Assembly: GCA_963677485.1 (NCBI GenBank) | Contig: OY781964.1 | Location: 2,784,001-2,848,000, forward strand | DNA: 64,000 bases | DNA from: Armatimonadota bacterium | Lineage (GTDB): Bacteria > Armatimonadota > HRBIN16 | Direction of reading: 5' to 3' | Shown here: positions 2,506 to 50,855 of the stretch, one piece after another | How the letters are laid out: the number at the start of each line of letters is the position of its first letter | Numbering within the stretch: the first letter of the stretch is position 1 | Translations under genes and position numbers: made by a program | The notes under the pieces: generated by a model | Databases searched by the model: none | What the model was told of the DNA's origin: nothing | The model's input: only the letters and a program-made list of their open reading frames with translations

Positions 2506-3891
2506 ATGAGTACATCGGCAATCAACACAACAACCTGTTCCGGCTGGGGACGCTACCCAAAAGCTCCCTGCGGGTTATACAGACCCGACAGCCTACGCGA
2601 GCTGGGCGATATCCCCACGGACTGTAAACAGCGCGGCTGGTCGGTGATACCTCGCGGACTAGGCCGCAGTTACGGCGACGCAGCCCTCAATGGCGGCTTC
2701 GGCGCGGCGTTGATGACCCACCTCGACCGTATCATCGAATTCAACACCTCCACGGGTCGGCTGCGCTGCGAGGCGGGTCTGAGCCTGCTGCAGATCATCC
2801 GGCGCCTGATGCCCCTGGGATGGTTCCCCATGGTCACCCCTGGCACGCAGTTCTGCACCGTGGGCGGGGCCATTGCGGCTGATGTCCACGGAAAAAACCA
2901 CCATGTGGACGGCTCCTTTGGCGACCACCTTTATCAGCTCACACTGATGCTGCCCTCAGGCGAGATGGTATCCTGCAGCCGAGAGCAGAATTCCGATCTG
3001 TTCTGGGCCACCGTGGGTGGGATGGGTCTGACCGGTGTGATCGTCGATGCCGAGTTTCAGCTTCGGGCCGTGCAGACGAGCCGGATTACCGAAAGCCGCG
3101 TGCGCACGCGCGATCTGGACGAGACGCTGTTCACCTTCCAGGAGCGCGACAGCCGGTATCCCTATTCCGTGGCTTGGATGGACTGCCTGAGCACAGGACG
3201 CCACTTTGGGCGCGGAGTTCTGCTGTTTGGCGACCATTCGGTAAGTACAGACCTGCCGCGGATGGAGCAGGACAAGCCGCTTTCATTACCCAAAGCGAAG
3301 TCGGTGACGGTTCCGATGGACGCTCCAGGATTTCTTTTGAACCGCCTCTCGCTGCTGGCATTTAACCAGGCCTATTACTCCTTTAATCCCACCAACGAGA
3401 GCCACATTGTCAGCACGCAGCGCTTCTTCCACCCGCTGGACGCCGTGGTGGACTGGAACCGGCTGTATGGTAAAGCCGGATTTACGCAGTGGCAGTGCAT
3501 CGTGCCTTTTGACGGCGGTGCCAAGCGGCTGCAGCAGATTTTAGAAAAAGTGCAGCATAGCGGTCAGTTGCCCTTCCTGTGCATTCTGAAGCGCATGGGT
3601 AAAGGAAGCGGCGGGCTGCTCTCCTTCCCGATGGAGGGCTACACCCTCGCGATGGACTTCCCTGTGCGGAAAGGACTGCTCCCGCTGCTGGATGCATTGG
3701 ATGAACTGGTGCTGCAAGCGGGTGGGCGGCTCTATCTGGCGAAGGATGCCCGGGCGTCGGTCAGCACCATCGCTGCGATGTATCCAAATCTGCACCTATT
3801 TAAAACTATGAAGATGAGTATCGACCCGAACATGCTGATGCAGAGCAACATGAGCCGTCGGCTGGAGCTTTCGGCTGAGGTGTCGGCATGA
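2506..3891 (+). CDS. FAD-binding oxidoreductase, DprE1-like (decaprenylphosphoryl-beta-D-ribose oxidase family)
   Basis: RGLGRSYGDAA, VTPGTQFCTVGGAIAADVHGKNHH, ATVGGMGLTG and GGRLYLAKD motifs; coupled to a downstream SDR. Confidence 0.85.
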   Translation: MSTSAINTTTCSGWGRYPKAPCGLYRPDSLRELGDIPTDCKQRGWSVIPRGLGRSYGDAALNGGFGAALMTHLDRIIEFNTSTGRLRCEAGLSLLQIIRRLMPLGWFPMVTPGTQFCTVGGAIAADVHGKNHHVDGSFGDHLYQLTLMLPSGEMVSCSREQNSDLFWATVGGMGLTGVIVDAEFQLRAVQTSRITESRVRTRDLDETLFTFQERDSRYPYSVAWMDCLSTGRHFGRGVLLFGDHSVSTDLPRMEQDKPLSLPKAKSVTVPMDAPGFLLNRLSLLAFNQAYYSFNPTNESHIVSTQRFFHPLDAVVDWNRLYGKAGFTQWQCIVPFDGGAKRLQQILEKVQHSGQLPFLCILKRMGKGSGGLLSFPMEGYTLAMDFPVRKGLLPLLDALDELVLQAGGRLYLAKDARASVSTIAAMYPNLHLFKTMKMSIDPNMLMQSNMSRRLELSAEVSA

Positions 3892-46797: not shown

Positions 46798-48369
46798 CTA
46801 TTGGGTAGTAATGACTGCGGTGACAGACATCCCGGCATGTAGGCGGTCAATGCCCCGTTGGTCTGGAGTGATCGTGAGTTTTACCGGGATACGCTGCACT
46901 ACTTTTGTGAAGTTCCCAGATGCATTATCTGGTGGGAGCAGGGCGAATGTCGCACCGGTTCCAGAAGCGATGCTATTGACAGTGGCCGCAAAGGACTGCC
47001 CTGCCAGGCTGTCGACTTTGATTTCTGCACTCTGACCAGGCCTGAGTTTTGCCATCTGCGTCTCTTTGAAGTTTGCGACCACCCAGATGTTTTGCGACGG
47101 TGGGGGCACAATCGCCATCAACGGCATACCGGGTTGGACGAGTACGCCTTCATTTACGCTGCGCTTGCTGACAATACCCGCAACAGGTGCCGTAATTCGG
47201 GTGTAGGACAATCGGAGTTTAGCGTCGGCGAGTGCCGCCCGTGCCTGACTAACCCTGGCACTTGCTTGATGTGCTGCGGCTTGGCTCATCGCCACCTGTT
47301 TTGGAGCCGTTTGTGCCTGTGTCAGCATCGCGAGGGCCTGTGTGTGACGCGCTCTTGAAATCAGCACCGCACTCCCAGATGAGACTAACTGAGCCCTTGC
47401 CTGTGTCACGCCAGCCAGCGCGGCATTATGCAGCTCCTGAGCCGCGGCATACTGAGCCTGTGCCTGATTGATGGTGGCATTCGCTGAAATAGTCTGCTCT
47501 TTGGCGGCACGCAGATCGGCCTTTTTCGCGTTAAGTGAGGACTTAGTTGAACCCAAATGCTGCTGCGCCGTCTGTAGCTGTGACTTCGCAATCTGCTCAC
47601 CGACGGCGGCTTGTTCCGCCACCTGGGTTCCAATCACATTATCGGATAGAAGTTTTTTGTATCTTGCGTTGTCGTTGACGGCTTTAGTATAGACCGCTTC
47701 TGCTGTTTCCAATGCGGCAGTTGCTGAGTTAACGTCGGTCTCTGCGGTTTCTACTTGTGCAGAAGCCGCCTCTATGGCAGCATCAGCGCGCCTTTGCTGA
47801 GCTTGCGCAGAGATGATGGCGGATTTCGCAACGGTGATGTTCGCTTGCACCCCTTTGGCATTAGCCGAGGCTTGCATCACGGAGGCTTCGTTGCGTGCCA
47901 CATCAGCTTCAGAACCGCCGATAGCACTCTCTGCTTGATTGGCCCCTGCTTCCGATTGTTGAATCTGAGCCATGCCGGTATCGTTGGTCAGCCCGACGTT
48001 GACTCCGCTCGCTTGTGCTGCGGCGATAGCCACGTCGAGGTTGGCTTCCGCCTGCTGAACTGATGTTTTATATGTGGAATCATCTAGCACTGCGATCAAC
48101 TGTCCTGCTTGAACATGCTGGTTATCTGTCATGTAGACCCGTTTCACTGTTCCGCTTACCTGGGGAGCGATAGTGATGATGTCAGCGGTCAGATAGGCGT
48201 CATCAGTGGAGGCATGCGCTGAGGAATACCTCCAGTAGTTCGTCCCACCGACAATGACGGCTATGGTGATTGCTACAACCGCGATCTTACCCAGCAAGTT
48301 TGCGGTCGTTTTGTTTTTTTGCATTACGTGATGATCGGGTTTCATATCAGATGGTTCTGATGCGCTCAT
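46798..48369 (-). CDS. EmrA/HlyD family membrane fusion protein with long coiled coil
   Basis: STDDAY, IAPQVSG, YTRITAPVAG, WVVANFKETQ and FALLPPDNASGNFTKVVQRIPV. Confidence 0.92.
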   Translation of the reverse strand: MSASEPSDMKPDHHVMQKNKTTANLLGKIAVVAITIAVIVGGTNYWRYSSAHASTDDAYLTADIITIAPQVSGTVKRVYMTDNQHVQAGQLIAVLDDSTYKTSVQQAEANLDVAIAAAQASGVNVGLTNDTGMAQIQQSEAGANQAESAIGGSEADVARNEASVMQASANAKGVQANITVAKSAIISAQAQQRRADAAIEAASAQVETAETDVNSATAALETAEAVYTKAVNDNARYKKLLSDNVIGTQVAEQAAVGEQIAKSQLQTAQQHLGSTKSSLNAKKADLRAAKEQTISANATINQAQAQYAAAQELHNAALAGVTQARAQLVSSGSAVLISRARHTQALAMLTQAQTAPKQVAMSQAAAHQASARVSQARAALADAKLRLSYTRITAPVAGIVSKRSVNEGVLVQPGMPLMAIVPPPSQNIWVVANFKETQMAKLRPGQSAEIKVDSLAGQSFAATVNSIASGTGATFALLPPDNASGNFTKVVQRIPVKLTITPDQRGIDRLHAGMSVTAVITTQ

Positions 48370-48456: not shown

Positions 48457-48478
48457 ATAGTTAGTGGTCACTAACTAT
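48457..48478. promoter_or_regulatory. Putative TetR operator
   Basis: Perfect palindrome ATAGTTAGTG-GT-CACTAACTAT directly downstream of the efflux operon promoter. Confidence 0.75.
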
Positions 48479-48483
48479 ATTTC

Positions 48484-48511
48484 ATAATATACTATTTCTA
48501 TAGTTTGTCAA
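48484..48511 (-). promoter_or_regulatory. Sigma70 promoter of the efflux operon
   Basis: Minus strand TTGACA (48511-48506) - 16 nt - TATTAT (48489-48484). Confidence 0.65.
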
Positions 48512-48517
48512 TAGTAT

Positions 48518-50169
48518 CTTACCAACCATATTTTGAACACGGTGTATAGAATATTCTGATATTACGCACCACACAAAGCGTTAGGCACAACGATCTGGCG
48601 AATAGCAAGTGCTGCCATGATGATACGCTTGCCAAGTGCAGTGAGGTAGTATTTGTAGCGTTTACCGCATTTTTTAACGAGCCGGAATACTCGGCATCGC
48701 TTGATGAAGTATGATATCTGAGAGCTGGACATCTGCGGTAAGGCTTTTTGAAGCATACGGTTTGTGATCCCGCTGATGCATCCCTCTCCGCGAGCAAGTG
48801 CAATGAGACATTCCAAATCCTTCTTGAGGAAAAGGTTGAATCCTCGATACGAGCGATGATCACGGGTGGTCGAGGTCGCGATTTTGATGATCTGATGTTC
48901 ACCATCGCTGTTGTCATCAAGGGCGGAAAGAAAGTCAAGATATCTGTTGTTTGCAGATAATAACAGTTCCCTCAATGGAGGAAGGCTGTAGATGGTCTTT
49001 TGCATAGGGGCGTATTTAATCTCAGTCGTCCCATCATGATGTTCTACCTCACGGTAGTGTTTAAATTCAGAGACGTCATTCACAGTCGTCTCGATACGCA
49101 AGATTATCCCTTGCTTGTCATACATTTTGATAGAAGCCCATCCCATGTAGTGTTTGATGCGCGTGCCTTGTATGCGGCGATCGAACTTGTAGTCAGTGCC
49201 GATCTCAGCGAGTGTTCGCCCATCAAGTTTCTTACCAAGAAACATCGCGATAGACTCTGGCGTTACCGTATGTATCGCTGTTTTGACTAGATTATCGTAG
49301 ATGGCTTTGAGGTCTTCGGCGCGTTTGAACACGATGTCTGTAGCATATTCCACCTGCATTAGCGACCAATGATATGAATTGTCAGCAAGCCGTATCACGG
49401 GGCAATACATTCTGGCAAATGCATCCAGCGCATGGTGCAGCTTATCAGCAGGAAAAGCGTCTGCCAGCCTCTGAGCACAGCTAAAGTCGTCGATTTTTAC
49501 AAAGGCGTTGTCCAGTGGAGTGAAAACTACTCCCTCGGATTGAAGGCAATGCGCGAGATAATTGTGTCCATTACAATAGAATTGCAGACGGAAGGGCACC
49601 CAGGTCGGAACTCGTAGATAGCACAGTCCAAACTCTGCATCGATGAAATAGAAGTAGTAATGAAGACACTTGGTCTCCTTGATATTCAGCCGGGTTTTGT
49701 GGGTAATCTTGTCGTGCCACGGGGTGTATGCAGGACATTTTTCCAACACTGAGAATATGTGGACGAGACCGGGGTGACACCCTCGACTACTAATGATCTC
49801 TTTGATGCGGTCTTCTTTTCGAAATGAAGAGGCACGGCGTATATACTCAATTTCAATGCTGTTGGTAACGGCAAGGCGTTCCGCATTGGCTTTGATCTCA
49901 TCTCGTAGAGGTTCGGCAAATTCCTTAGGAAAGTCAAATAGCCTGATGTTGCGTTGATGAAGATAGATGCCCATTCCGTCGCTATGACACCAGCCTGGGA
50001 TTGTACCGGTGATAACTATGCGGTCGAAGCATGAATATACCCCAGCTATCTGCTTTGCATAGCGTTCTTGAAGTGATGTCATTCTGGGCAACCTCACGAA
50101 AGGGTGTTTGAATGTATATTACGTGGCGAATGCAATCATTCCTTTTTTGGTTGCGGCTAAGCCGCCTTA
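48518..50169 (-). mobile_element. Putative insertion element of an unclassified type
   Basis: A single lower-GC ORF separates tetR from its operator and efflux operon. TAAG (minus strand) sits at both proposed ends (48518-48521, 50166-50169), with hairpin GCGGC-TTA-GCCGC followed by AACCAAA at the 5' end and no terminal inverted repeats. Confidence 0.6.
48562..50082 (-). CDS. Putative transposase/relaxase with Rep_trans-like motifs and C-terminal wHTH
   Basis: SCFDRIVITGT, HYYFYFID, FYCNGH, QVEYATDIVF and IKMYDK...LRIETT; C-terminal MarR-like wHTH (ISYFIKRCRVFRLVKKCGKRYKYYLT); ATG 50082 with GAGG (ORF track 50097). Confidence 0.65.
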   Translation of the reverse strand: MTSLQERYAKQIAGVYSCFDRIVITGTIPGWCHSDGMGIYLHQRNIRLFDFPKEFAEPLRDEIKANAERLAVTNSIEIEYIRRASSFRKEDRIKEIISSRGCHPGLVHIFSVLEKCPAYTPWHDKITHKTRLNIKETKCLHYYFYFIDAEFGLCYLRVPTWVPFRLQFYCNGHNYLAHCLQSEGVVFTPLDNAFVKIDDFSCAQRLADAFPADKLHHALDAFARMYCPVIRLADNSYHWSLMQVEYATDIVFKRAEDLKAIYDNLVKTAIHTVTPESIAMFLGKKLDGRTLAEIGTDYKFDRRIQGTRIKHYMGWASIKMYDKQGIILRIETTVNDVSEFKHYREVEHHDGTTEIKYAPMQKTIYSLPPLRELLLSANNRYLDFLSALDDNSDGEHQIIKIATSTTRDHRSYRGFNLFLKKDLECLIALARGEGCISGITNRMLQKALPQMSSSQISYFIKRCRVFRLVKKCGKRYKYYLTALGKRIIMAALAIRQIVVPNALCGA

Positions 50170-50276
50170 GGACTAGCAGAAATGAGCTCATGAAATGGTA
50201 TGAGCAAACTGCAGTAGGTAGCTGACAGGCAGAATGAAGTAAAATGGGGTGGGCAGGAATACACATGGAGATTTGC

Positions 50277-50855
50277 ATGAACGCATATGATAAGTCGGAG
50301 ATGACGCATTCGGATCAAACAAGAGAGCGGCTGCTCACATCAGGGCTGAACCTGCTGGCAGTGAAGGGATACCGCGGTGCTGTCACCCGCGAGATCGCTG
50401 CAGGAGCAGGCGTCACTGAAATGACGTTATATCGCCATTTTCGGTCAAAAGACGAACTTTTCGCCGCCGCCATTGATGTTAATGGCAAACGGATGTTGTC
50501 ACTCATTCCAGAACCGAGCGGTGACATCACAGCCGATCTGGTGCTACTCTCTGCGAACTTGGCCAAACAGATTCACGCCGTTTTAATGCAACTTATTCAA
50601 ATCGTACCGGAATTACGGCAACACGATGAGTTAAAAGAACAGGTCAATAAGGCGAAGCACGAGTTCCGGACCAAACTGATAACACTCTTGAGCTATTACA
50701 CCAATGGTAACGCGCCTAGCACCTCGGATACGATGCGGTTCTACATGTTTATTGGACCCATACTGCTGCACTTGCTGGACAGTGATGATTCTGAGTTTGT
50801 GTTTGACTGCGAACAACACGTTAAATTGTTCCTGGAAGGTATCTCCGTCGCCTAG
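50277..50855 (+). CDS. TetR/AcrR family transcriptional regulator
   Basis: TREIAAGAGVTEMTLYRHFRSKDELF HTH; divergent from the efflux operon; ATG 50277 after GGAG. Confidence 0.92.
   Translation: MNAYDKSEMTHSDQTRERLLTSGLNLLAVKGYRGAVTREIAAGAGVTEMTLYRHFRSKDELFAAAIDVNGKRMLSLIPEPSGDITADLVLLSANLAKQIHAVLMQLIQIVPELRQHDELKEQVNKAKHEFRTKLITLLSYYTNGNAPSTSDTMRFYMFIGPILLHLLDSDDSEFVFDCEQHVKLFLEGISVA

Follow-up and report, generated by a model that had tools for sequence, protein, structure and literature searches.

A widespread bacterial insertion sequence whose probable transposase joins a predicted Rep_trans-like fold to a MarR-like winged helix

The chemistries of transposases are few, comprising those of the DDE, DEDD and HUH enzymes and of the serine and tyrosine recombinases. 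For nickases of the Rep_trans superfamily, the account in a 2017 review gives plasmid and phage replication and the transfer of ICEs (elements that are integrative and conjugative) as their roles, naming transposases only among the HUH enzymes (PMC5714925), and a 2026 paper on the Rep-Arvir proteins, in which Rep_trans nucleases are described as having a TBP fold, lists plasmids, filamentous phages and conjugative transposons as their contexts (PMC13107129). Here we analyse a 64,000-nucleotide stretch of the genome of an Armatimonadota bacterium (contig OY781964.1, positions 2,784,001 to 2,848,000; hereafter the window, numbered from its first letter) in which an open reading frame (ORF) for a 506-amino-acid (aa) protein lies within a multi-copy element of 1.66 kb. 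We posit that this element is an insertion sequence (IS) with a single-protein transposase, in which a Rep_trans-type, metal-dependent tyrosine nickase-ligase is combined with a MarR-like winged helix-turn-helix (wHTH) domain, and that it probably moves by one-strand, rolling-circle-like transposition. An earlier note on this DNA, made from the letters alone, had proposed an element of this kind; its observations are confirmed in part and its interpretation is supported by the results below. No transposase of Rep_trans or TBP fold, and no description of this IS family, was found in the literature, a survey that did not cover ISfinder or InterPro, where an entry may already exist.

A DNA search of the 5.22-Mb single-contig genome found a 1660-bp block (window positions 48512-50171) at 22 places at 99-100% identity, and a protein search of the same genome returned 22 intact open frames without stops, one 506-aa ORF per copy. 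When the copies are aligned with their flanks, similarity on the gene strand begins at CCTAAGGCGG and ceases at GGTAAGATACTA. The common block ends ...ATGGTTGGTAAGATACTA, 6 nt beyond the right end (...GGTAAG) first suggested for a segment of 48518-50169, and those limits are thus replaced by 48512-50171. Left and right ends are equally frequent (22 each), with neither solo ends nor deletion derivatives in the genome. An empty site is provided by a 400-nt contig from a drinking-water metagenome (run X5), which aligns to 48462-48511 and then to 50168-50509, skipping 1656 bases, with three letters fitting either side; the contig was placed at a 90% likeness threshold and comes from a related rather than the same organism, differing at 6/50 and 21/342 letters. 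On the gene strand the empty site reads GTC-CTA-TTGACA, with a single CTA. The skip therefore indicates that the insertion adds 1656 bp, that CTA stands at both junctions, and that the C before the left CTA is derived from the target. The insertion itself (48512..50170, minus strand) comprises 1653 bp of element-specific DNA with CTA at each junction (left, 50168..50170; right, 48514-48512), preceded by the target-derived C at 50171, which is C in 22/22 copies. The expectation that deletion would leave one copy of an end repeat is borne out by this contig as far as the single copy goes, while the repeat is CTA and not TAAG as had been thought: the junction repeat is CTA(A), and the tetranucleotide of the end is C(T/C)AA. 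Together, the 22 near-identical copies and the orthologous empty site identify a mobile insertion element, as originally claimed, and one that is recently active and probably autonomous.

Other candidate comparisons for the insertion site were less informative. The nearest same-genus genome, G001, lacks the element, but of a 3.66-kb query spanning the site no more than 218 bases were matched there, with no contiguous empty site. Three other copies had flanks 65-89% identical to G001 and G002, likewise without a contiguous site. Contigs of run X1 stop exactly at 48512 and 50171 and were rejected as independent context, being from the same population, since a loose end equals the flank of another genomic copy with one mismatch. 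In 13/22 reconstructed empty sites the junction is spanned by an open frame of 150 aa or more, a count that bears on gene disruption and is no boundary test, given that removing any multiple of 3 keeps the frame.

The ends of the element are asymmetric. The left end, read along the gene strand, is CC-TAAG-GCGGC-TTA-GCCGC-AACCAAAAAA, containing the TAAG-hairpin-AACC arrangement just as the earlier note had described it. The hairpin GCGGC-TTA-GCCGC (50153..50165, minus strand) has a 5-bp stem and a 3-nt loop, starts 2 nt past the CTA, and is directly followed by an AACCAA box (50147..50152, minus strand); folding of a 70-nt left-end stretch as DNA gave -8.9 kcal/mol with the GCGGC/GCCGC stem. 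At the right end, GGTAAGATACTA (48512..48523, minus strand) corresponds to a family consensus of TAAG-RG-ACTA, next to which the flank most often begins with A. No terminal inverted repeats were found in the element, in agreement with the first reading. A weak subterminal inverted 6-mer is present in the window copy (CAACCA at 50153-50148 and TGGTTG at 48528-48523, gene strand); subterminal inverted repeats were dropped as a family feature, as only a short ACCA-type similarity recurs and the 6-mer is poorly conserved. Of the 22 copies, 18 have A and 4 have T next to the right CTA, and none has C or G there. Given that the C before the left CTA is invariant in these copies, that A exceeds T after the right CTA, and that CCTAA is rarer in the genome than CCTAT (3684 versus 5434 sites, among 17,074 for CCTA overall), the preferred target is 5'-C-CTA-(A>T).

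The same anatomy extends well beyond this genome. Copies from three other genomes (6, 11 and 2 aligned) stop at the same type of boundary, with CTA at both junctions, left ends of the form (C)CTAA(C/G)-CCGGn-loop-nCCGG-AACCAA, right ends of TAAG-NN-ACTA followed by A, and unit lengths of 1625-1660 bp. A left-end motif consisting of C(T/C)AA, a hairpin and (A/T)ACCNA was found in 54 of 62 non-redundant loci, 50-133 nt upstream of the ORF, with CTAA in 43 cases and CCAA in 11. For 50 left ends aligned without gaps (the window and 49 of the 54, omitting one whose loop is longer and four that start where their contig starts), pairing is possible in 93.2% of cells over the five stem positions, and the two variable pairs show compensatory changes only (CG 44/GC 5/UA 1 and CG 46/UA 4). 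This covariation was unmatched in 500 shuffles, and slid registers dropped to 4-38% pairing; it identifies a conserved inverted repeat rather than a hairpin formed in vivo, as a palindrome bound as duplex DNA would produce the pattern equally. The AACCAA box of these 50 ends, which come from many phyla, shows no variation in columns A24, C25, C26 and A28 and a conservation of at least 90% in A23 and A27, making the box a candidate binding site for the winged-helix domain. The right-end motif TAAG-NN-ACTA was picked in 42/55 loci, giving lengths mostly of 1596-1701, with two picks (L038 and L094) wrong; the base after ACTA was A in 32, T in 4, C in 3 and G in 2 of 41, a count that includes these two wrong rows. 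Variant right ends carry CCTA (L049, L062, L091), TCTA (L086) or ACTG (L093), and one has no CTA (L035). The copy number and the shared end motifs across phyla exceed chance.

An unusual insertion site was noted in a Pseudomonadota metagenome-assembled genome (MAG; L048, ~3030-3120), where the right end ...GAACTAAGTA is followed at once by about nine tandem copies of CCTAAGTA, each of which holds CCTAA, the preferred target. These repeats could have been there first, as a microsatellite that attracted the element, or could have arisen through repeated termination and re-initiation.

The CTA at both junctions is probably not an ordinary target-site duplication, as seen when the left triplet is mapped onto a maximum-likelihood tree of 53 transposases from a quick search. 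On this tree 4 changes account for the CCA variant, compared to 10.2 when states are shuffled, and not one of 500 shuffles was as low. One clade of 7 elements, in differing hosts and flanks, has CCA on the left throughout, and all 5 of its elements whose right end lies in the locus have ACTA on the right. Moreover, two elements that are 85% identical and reside in one genome differ on the left (CCAA versus CTAA) and share ACTAA on the right. Because CCA is inherited on the left while the right stays CTA in independent insertions, the left and right triplets have different origins. Two registers fit these observations. Register I takes A-hairpin...ACTA as the element and places its insertion 3' of C-C(T/C)A; register II takes C(T/C)AA-hairpin...TAAGRGA, with insertion between C and CTAA. 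We think register II the more parsimonious and prefer it, since it asks for no more than a tolerated, inherited change at the hairpin end, keeps the target constant and also explains the locus without CTA (L035).

These data bear directly on a double-strand mechanism, in which the CTAs would be either a duplication arising from a 3-nt staggered cut at CTA or the shared 3-bp core of a recombinase-like exchange. Such a mechanism would account for CTA at both junctions in 22/22 copies and in the 6, 11 and 2 copies of the three other genomes, for a target that is a short specific sequence, and for the lack of a replication-linked orientation bias. We nevertheless regard it as improbable, given the tree-inherited CCA in 11/54 related left ends with CTA kept at the right junctions of independent insertions, the conserved right end of L035 that is not followed by CTA, and descriptions of known enzymes of Rep_trans fold as nicking one strand (PMC4797284, PMC5714925).

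Relatives of the 506-aa protein are extremely numerous. Among clusters at 90% identity, a word-indexed search found at least 7998 relatives (E up to 1e-3 for 7998 of the 8000 candidates that were scored), and an exhaustive search of 50%-identity representatives returned 6547 at E up to 1e-3, including 659 at E up to 1e-30. The best 120 of the at least 7998 homologues are 57-77% identical over 92-100% of the query, none with a Pfam domain, and most lie on contigs of only 1.6-2.5 kb. These short contigs, combined with four (L042, L052, L090 and L097) that begin exactly at CCTAA of the left end, suggest that the element breaks short-read assemblies and is therefore present in several copies in those genomes too. 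Using the single protein as query, 252 stretches in species-representative genomes were found to encode a relative, spanning at least 14 phyla by record title, and protein and end motifs stay together at 50-60% protein identity across this range. An alphaproteobacterial MAG (7.4 Mb; G410, host of L101) has 41 transposase matches, a Nitrospirota MAG has 7, and a gammaproteobacterial genome has 8, partly fragmentary. Within the phylum of the window, a match at E up to 1e-20 occurs in 7/200 other genomes, several of these matches being broken, and in 0/17 of the same family, a patchy distribution that fits horizontal spread.

Two further observations concern the spread of the family. In the alphaproteobacterial MAG, a single contig has 22 full copies within 0.8 Mb (G410:C1:578000-1395000), which points either to a plastic region or to a burst in which the element hopped locally. 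Near-identical transposases are found by tree and record title in hosts of different phyla (L058/L064 and L070/L089), one pair combining Myxococcota and Thermodesulfobacteriota with branch lengths of 0.007 and 0.027 and the other Kiritimatiellota and Thermodesulfobacteriota; these point to recent transfer between phyla or to mis-binned contigs.

Databases do not recognise these proteins as transposases. Record names of homologues are hypothetical protein or MarR family transcriptional regulator, none being transposase, and a homologue on a Paraburkholderia plasmid is named an ArsR family transcriptional regulator, so that the mislabelling by annotation pipelines foreseen in the earlier note does occur. 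The names raise the question of whether the ORF is a transposase at all, or rather a regulator, replication or mobilisation protein on an element moved in trans, or part of a small integrated replicon. Its structural relatives, described below, are replication initiators and relaxases and not transposases, which likewise agrees with this view. It is nonetheless very improbable in light of a 1.66-kb unit without any other conserved ORF, the joint travel of protein and end motifs across at least 14 phyla, the 22 chromosomal copies without solo ends or deletion derivatives, and the patchy occurrence in 7/200 genomes of the phylum and 0/17 of the family. The Rep_trans model PF02486 was not found elsewhere in the genome, again speaking against an integrated replicon or mobilisation protein, nor was it found in four Bacillota or Actinomycetota genomes that carry the element.

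Sequence comparison assigns the protein to no described family, with no match to Pfam (E up to 1), NCBIfam or PHROG; in accordance with the first reading, no transposase model of Pfam or NCBIfam was matched, and NCBIfam takes in NCBI's IS-family models. A search of solved structures with the single protein gave nothing below E 0.9, and the ESM Atlas gave no usable match. AlphaFold2 models built on a family alignment of 70 sequences were of high confidence, with a predicted local distance difference test (pLDDT) of 93.7 for the whole protein, and a pLDDT of 96.1 and a predicted template-modelling score (pTM) of 0.93 for residues 1-390 alone. They divide the protein into a predicted catalytic domain (residues 1-390; 48913..50082, minus strand) with a double TBP-like, Rep_trans-like fold, and a predicted MarR/HxlR-like wHTH (residues 391-506; 48565..48912, minus strand). 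The C-terminal wHTH that the earlier note had suggested is seen in VIA-align scores of Z 9-10 between residues ~390-506 and HxlR, MarR and ArsR-type structures, and in the only match of the family profile to solved structures, that to the MarR structure 3bj6 (E 0.013). In addition, PF25213 was found below threshold in 29/70 members, and matched at residues ~465-510 in 4/10 members checked.

For the N-terminal domain, VIA-align against 48,161 PDB representatives placed five TBP entries and two Rep_trans representatives in the top 7. The best TBP match has Z 9.0 (180/189 residues; root-mean-square deviation (rmsd) 3.9), followed among Rep_trans structures by RepSTK1 4cij_A (Z 7.2, 191 aligned, rmsd 4.9) and RepDE 4cwc_A (Z 7.1, 177 aligned, rmsd 5.2), with 4cwe_A also at Z 7.1. 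In a second structural comparison rows 1-39 were all TBP or Rep_trans, with only partial matches (Z <=6.5) below them. Foldseek ranks 1-4 are the RepSTK1 4cij chains, with E values from 2.1e-4 to 1.7e-3 and probabilities of 0.97-1.00, and the RepDE entries follow with probabilities of 0.95 and 0.89; the structure anticipated from the sequence is thus recovered. A viral structure library added viral TBPs and Inoviridae proteins; its matches include A0A2N9QVX7, and also A0A345MNV4 (E 1.1e-4), the latter described as an Inoviridae Rep_trans initiator (PMC13107129). Two other comparisons were uninformative: hhalign against 16 MobT relaxases gave a probability of 0.7% with a profile too shallow for a fair test, these being 78-93% mutually identical, and a prediction of two copies of the N-terminal domain as a dimer scored 0.06 against a mark of 0.42, which is evidence neither way.

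The conserved residues of this domain can be compared to those of characterised Rep_trans enzymes. In the RepDE study of Carr et al. (2016; PMC4797284), the catalytic Y191 is flanked by R189 and K193, the residues R140, D142, A144, D146, R212 and E214 are strictly conserved, and the metal is held by D46, D142 and E214, each on a separate strand at the inner face of the sheet. The motifs tabulated for Rep_trans in the 2017 review are N' (D), I (RxD), II, III (YxKxxE) and IV (W/LxRxE) (PMC5714925). In the 70-sequence family alignment, which reaches down to 28% identity, D20, E245, K319, Y321, R329 and E331 are invariant, and D249 and K323 are at least 90% conserved. The sequences VEYATD, KMYDK and LRIE, in which the earlier note had seen Rep_trans equivalents, contain these residues as E245-x-A-x-D249 (with A247 inside), K319-x-Y321-x-K323 and R329-x-E331; all lie on beta strands in the models, K319, Y321 and K323 on strand 316-323, and they correspond in order to motifs I, III and IV, with order and spacing inside each motif in agreement with Rep_trans. 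By alignment and model secondary structure, D20, E245 and E331 occupy three different strands in Rep_trans order. Invariant D20, which the earlier note does not mention, supports an assignment to the N-terminal motif: structural alignments start at RepDE residue 39 = model residue 13 and at RepSTK1 residue 1 = model residue 12, such that RepDE D46 and RepSTK1 D9 would fall on D20 if the first strand is ungapped. On the strength of these sequence correspondences, we propose Y321 (49120-49122) as the nucleophile and D20 (50023-50025), E245 (49348-49350) and E331 (49090-49092) as metal ligands, with D249, K319, K323 and R329 as further candidate residues of the active site.

Asymmetric ends, a direct short motif, a one-sided hairpin, and a Rep-type enzyme with an attached DNA-binding domain lead us to posit one-strand cleavage and rejoining via a 5'-phosphotyrosine, a route used by Rep_trans initiators (PMC4797284, PMC5714925). 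IS91 and IS200/IS605 are analogous, with a catalytic fold that is unrelated. The winged helix and catalytic domain would recognise the left end through C(T/C)AA, the 5-bp hairpin and the AACCAA box. Y321 would then nick one strand at C(T/C)AA and become joined to the 5' phosphate, a second cut would fall at ACTA|A of the far end, and the freed or displaced strand would be joined into a target of 5'-C-CTA-A. Mobility, copy number, end anatomy, target preference, the modelled fold and the conservation of the motifs come from the data above; that Y321 is the catalyst, which strand it cuts and at which phosphodiester, and whether the moving strand is excised or copied are points that we infer.

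Several features weigh against this interpretation. The Rep_trans matches are moderate (Z 7.1-7.2) and lie below that to TBP (Z 9.0), which is not an enzyme, and a TBP-like fold, here a predicted one, is by itself no proof of nuclease activity. Neither PF02486 nor PF25227 has a sequence-level match to the protein; PF02486 is also not among the 25 commonest of the 36 Pfam families found for the 70 members. Motif I is Q-x-E and not R-x-D, thus having E for D and no arginine, motif III is without the trailing E of YxKxxE, and only 8 residues separate Y321 from R329. Y143 and Y145 are further invariant tyrosines, so that Y321 is not the sole candidate nucleophile. For a set of 38 right ends, RNAalifold gave no predicted pairing. 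Finally, the junction of the element lies 5' of the hairpin, unlike the nick of Rep_trans origins, which is described as falling in the hairpin loop (PMC13107129). When the bottom strand is considered, the junction motif lies 3' of the hairpin. A motif 3' of its hairpin is the usual relaxase arrangement.

The two additional tyrosines (window ~49648-49656) are part of the sequence HYYFYF on a strand of the first TBP repeat, and might give a second nucleophile like that of Y2 transposases.

Given the same chemistry, the element could also move by a strict peel-and-paste route in the style of IS200/IS605, in which a circle is excised from one strand without replication and inserted into single-stranded DNA (ssDNA) at the replication fork. 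In IS200/IS605, insertion orientation is tied to the direction of replication. Cumulative GC skew in the window genome puts the origin at ~2.16 Mb and the terminus at ~4.76 Mb, and the gene strand is on the leading-strand template in only 15/22 copies, which, together with the 12:10 division in another genome described below, counts against an obligatory lagging-strand route of the IS200/IS605 kind. The bottom strand is accordingly on the lagging-strand template in the same 15/22, as peel and paste would allow, and the route is also in keeping with the lack of terminal inverted repeats, with a subterminal hairpin beside a short specific cleavage and target motif, and with junction triplets that differ in some lineages. 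We consider it unlikely all the same, as the 15/22 bias is weak and other genomes show even less: 12 full copies point one way and 10 the other within 0.8 Mb of the alphaproteobacterial (G410) contig, where the skew is weak and mostly of one sign (negative in 9/12 sampled 20-kb windows), and the ratio on the Nitrospirota contig is 4:3. Furthermore, a hairpin is detectable at the left end only, and 22 identical copies suggest a gain in copy number. Rolling-circle-like copy-out is thus favoured over strict peel and paste on account of the lack of a strong orientation bias, the 22 identical copies and the kinship to replication initiators.

The copy of the element in the window adjoins the promoter of a putative efflux system. 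Its ORF (48565-50082, minus strand) encodes 506 aa when counted from the ATG; a GTG lying 15 nt upstream would give 511 aa. On one side of it is a gene of the TetR family (50244-50855; PF00440, E 3.3e-14), and on the other a divergent gene for a membrane-fusion protein of HlyD/EmrA type (46798-48369), past which two more minus-strand ORFs are read as a putative major facilitator superfamily pump and an outer-membrane factor. This confirms the placement of a 506-aa, lower-GC ORF between tetR and the efflux promoter, with a G+C content of 46.4% for the element compared to 54.4% for the genome. The promoter-like site of the efflux operon (48484-48511, minus strand; TTGACA, 16 nt, TATTAT) is outside the element and is mentioned as context only; it matches 11/12 consensus positions and is the top site in the scanned region. 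The right end directly adjoins its TTGACA -35 box (48511-48506), so the element sits exactly between the tetR side (50172-50243) and the -35 box of the divergent operon (48484-48511), with the transposase gene directed toward that operon. The efflux promoter retains, in the spacer from its -35 to its -10 box, a palindrome (ACTATAGAAATAGT) that may be the TetR operator. By splitting tetR from the promoter of the efflux operon, the insertion may change efflux expression.

Flanks of two other copies in the genome contain repeats of their own. Next to the copy at G000:C1:2507487 (L002:3383-3794), stretches of 60-210 bp match dozens of places in G001 on both strands (88 matches), resembling a dispersed repeat of the genus of the REP (repetitive extragenic palindromic) or MITE-like (miniature inverted-repeat transposable element) kind. 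Next to the copy at G000:C1:4242282 (L003:855-1076), ~200 bp recur at over 100 places in G001 (205 matches in total). Many of these fall in tandem gene arrays at ~2.96-2.99 Mb and 3.19-3.23 Mb, so that the stretch resembles a conserved module shared by a large family of paralogous genes.

We rate the parts of this system as known, in that a one-strand, Rep-driven mobile element and the enzyme superfamily have precedents, the combination as new, and the family as very large. On balance we lean towards a mechanistically new class of prokaryotic transposase, in which a tyrosine nickase-ligase of TBP fold and Rep_trans-like type, fused to a winged helix, drives a very widespread IS family unrecognised by IS catalogues and annotation pipelines. 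If true, a rolling-circle initiator fold was recruited independently for transposition, in parallel to the HUH enzymes of IS91 and IS200/IS605, and a family using the Rep_trans fold would add one chemistry to those of transposases. It would also link bacterial Rep_trans to the archaeal Rep-Arvir proteins through a common architecture of nuclease and MarR-like domain. In practical terms, tools based on known IS families would probably miss these elements, and regulator counts are inflated by the MarR and ArsR labels of homologues. The element, of 1.66 kb and one gene, with defined ends and a target of 5 nt, would be a ready experimental system, and sequence-specific enzymes that covalently join ssDNA are also useful as tags.

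Among known systems, similarity to MarR and ArsR regulators is limited to the winged-helix fold of the last ~115 residues. A MarR protein (~150 aa) is essentially a wHTH alone, whereas three quarters of the element protein is a separate domain of catalytic type, and its gene is a multi-copy mobile unit with conserved ends. The element is also set apart from the IS110/IS1111 (DEDD) and DDE families, with no Pfam or NCBIfam transposase match and no terminal inverted repeats. It is closer in its DNA anatomy to IS91/ISCR (HUH Y2) and IS200/IS605 (HUH Y1), with which it shares the lack of terminal inverted repeats and of an ordinary target duplication, insertion beside a fixed 4-5-nt motif, a subterminal hairpin and a Rep-related enzyme. 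It differs from them in having a hairpin at one end only and no strong orientation bias, and in an enzyme of unrelated fold, TBP-like by prediction, with a tyrosine on a strand and carboxylates as the proposed metal ligands. No HUH signature is evident, judging by Pfam and NCBIfam searches, the TBP-like fold and the conserved tyrosine on a strand, while HUH enzymes are described as having an RRM-like fold with the tyrosine on a helix (PMC5714925).

The closest enzymes are those of the Rep_trans/MOB_T group (pT181 RepC/RepD, RepSTK1, NicK of ICEBs1 and Orf20 of Tn916). They share with the element protein, by sequence, predicted fold and secondary structure of the latter, a double TBP-like catalytic domain, a strand-borne tyrosine in a basic-x-Y-x-K context, three conserved carboxylates on separate strands in the same order (D...(D/E)xAxD...YxK...RxE), an attached DNA-binding domain, and a hairpin-bearing recognition site beside the cleavage motif. 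Unlike these proteins, the element protein has no PF02486 match, its domain is ~390 residues compared to ~200 PF02486 profile positions, and its DNA-binding domain is a C-terminal MarR-like wHTH; moreover, its junction is beside the hairpin, not in the loop, and it belongs to a 1.66-kb, multi-copy chromosomal IS rather than a plasmid, phage or ICE. The same domain order is found in Rep-Arvir/RepSNJ2 (DUF7845, PF25227) of archaeal viruses and plasmids, where a TBP-fold tyrosine nuclease is likewise followed by a MarR-like wHTH, the kinship to Rep_trans is visible by structure only, as here, and a conserved hairpin is the cis site, as in the element (PMC13107129). The viral-library matches A0A2N9QVX7 and A0A345MNV4 are both cited in that paper. 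The element protein, in contrast to Rep-Arvir, has no PF25227 match, is bacterial, is without the extra C-terminal domain, and would serve the transposition of an IS, not the replication of a virus or plasmid. In the comparison made in the Rep-Arvir paper, a wHTH fusion was not observed in bacterial Rep_trans proteins (PMC13107129); the element family would be an exception to that statement if it is counted as a Rep_trans relative.

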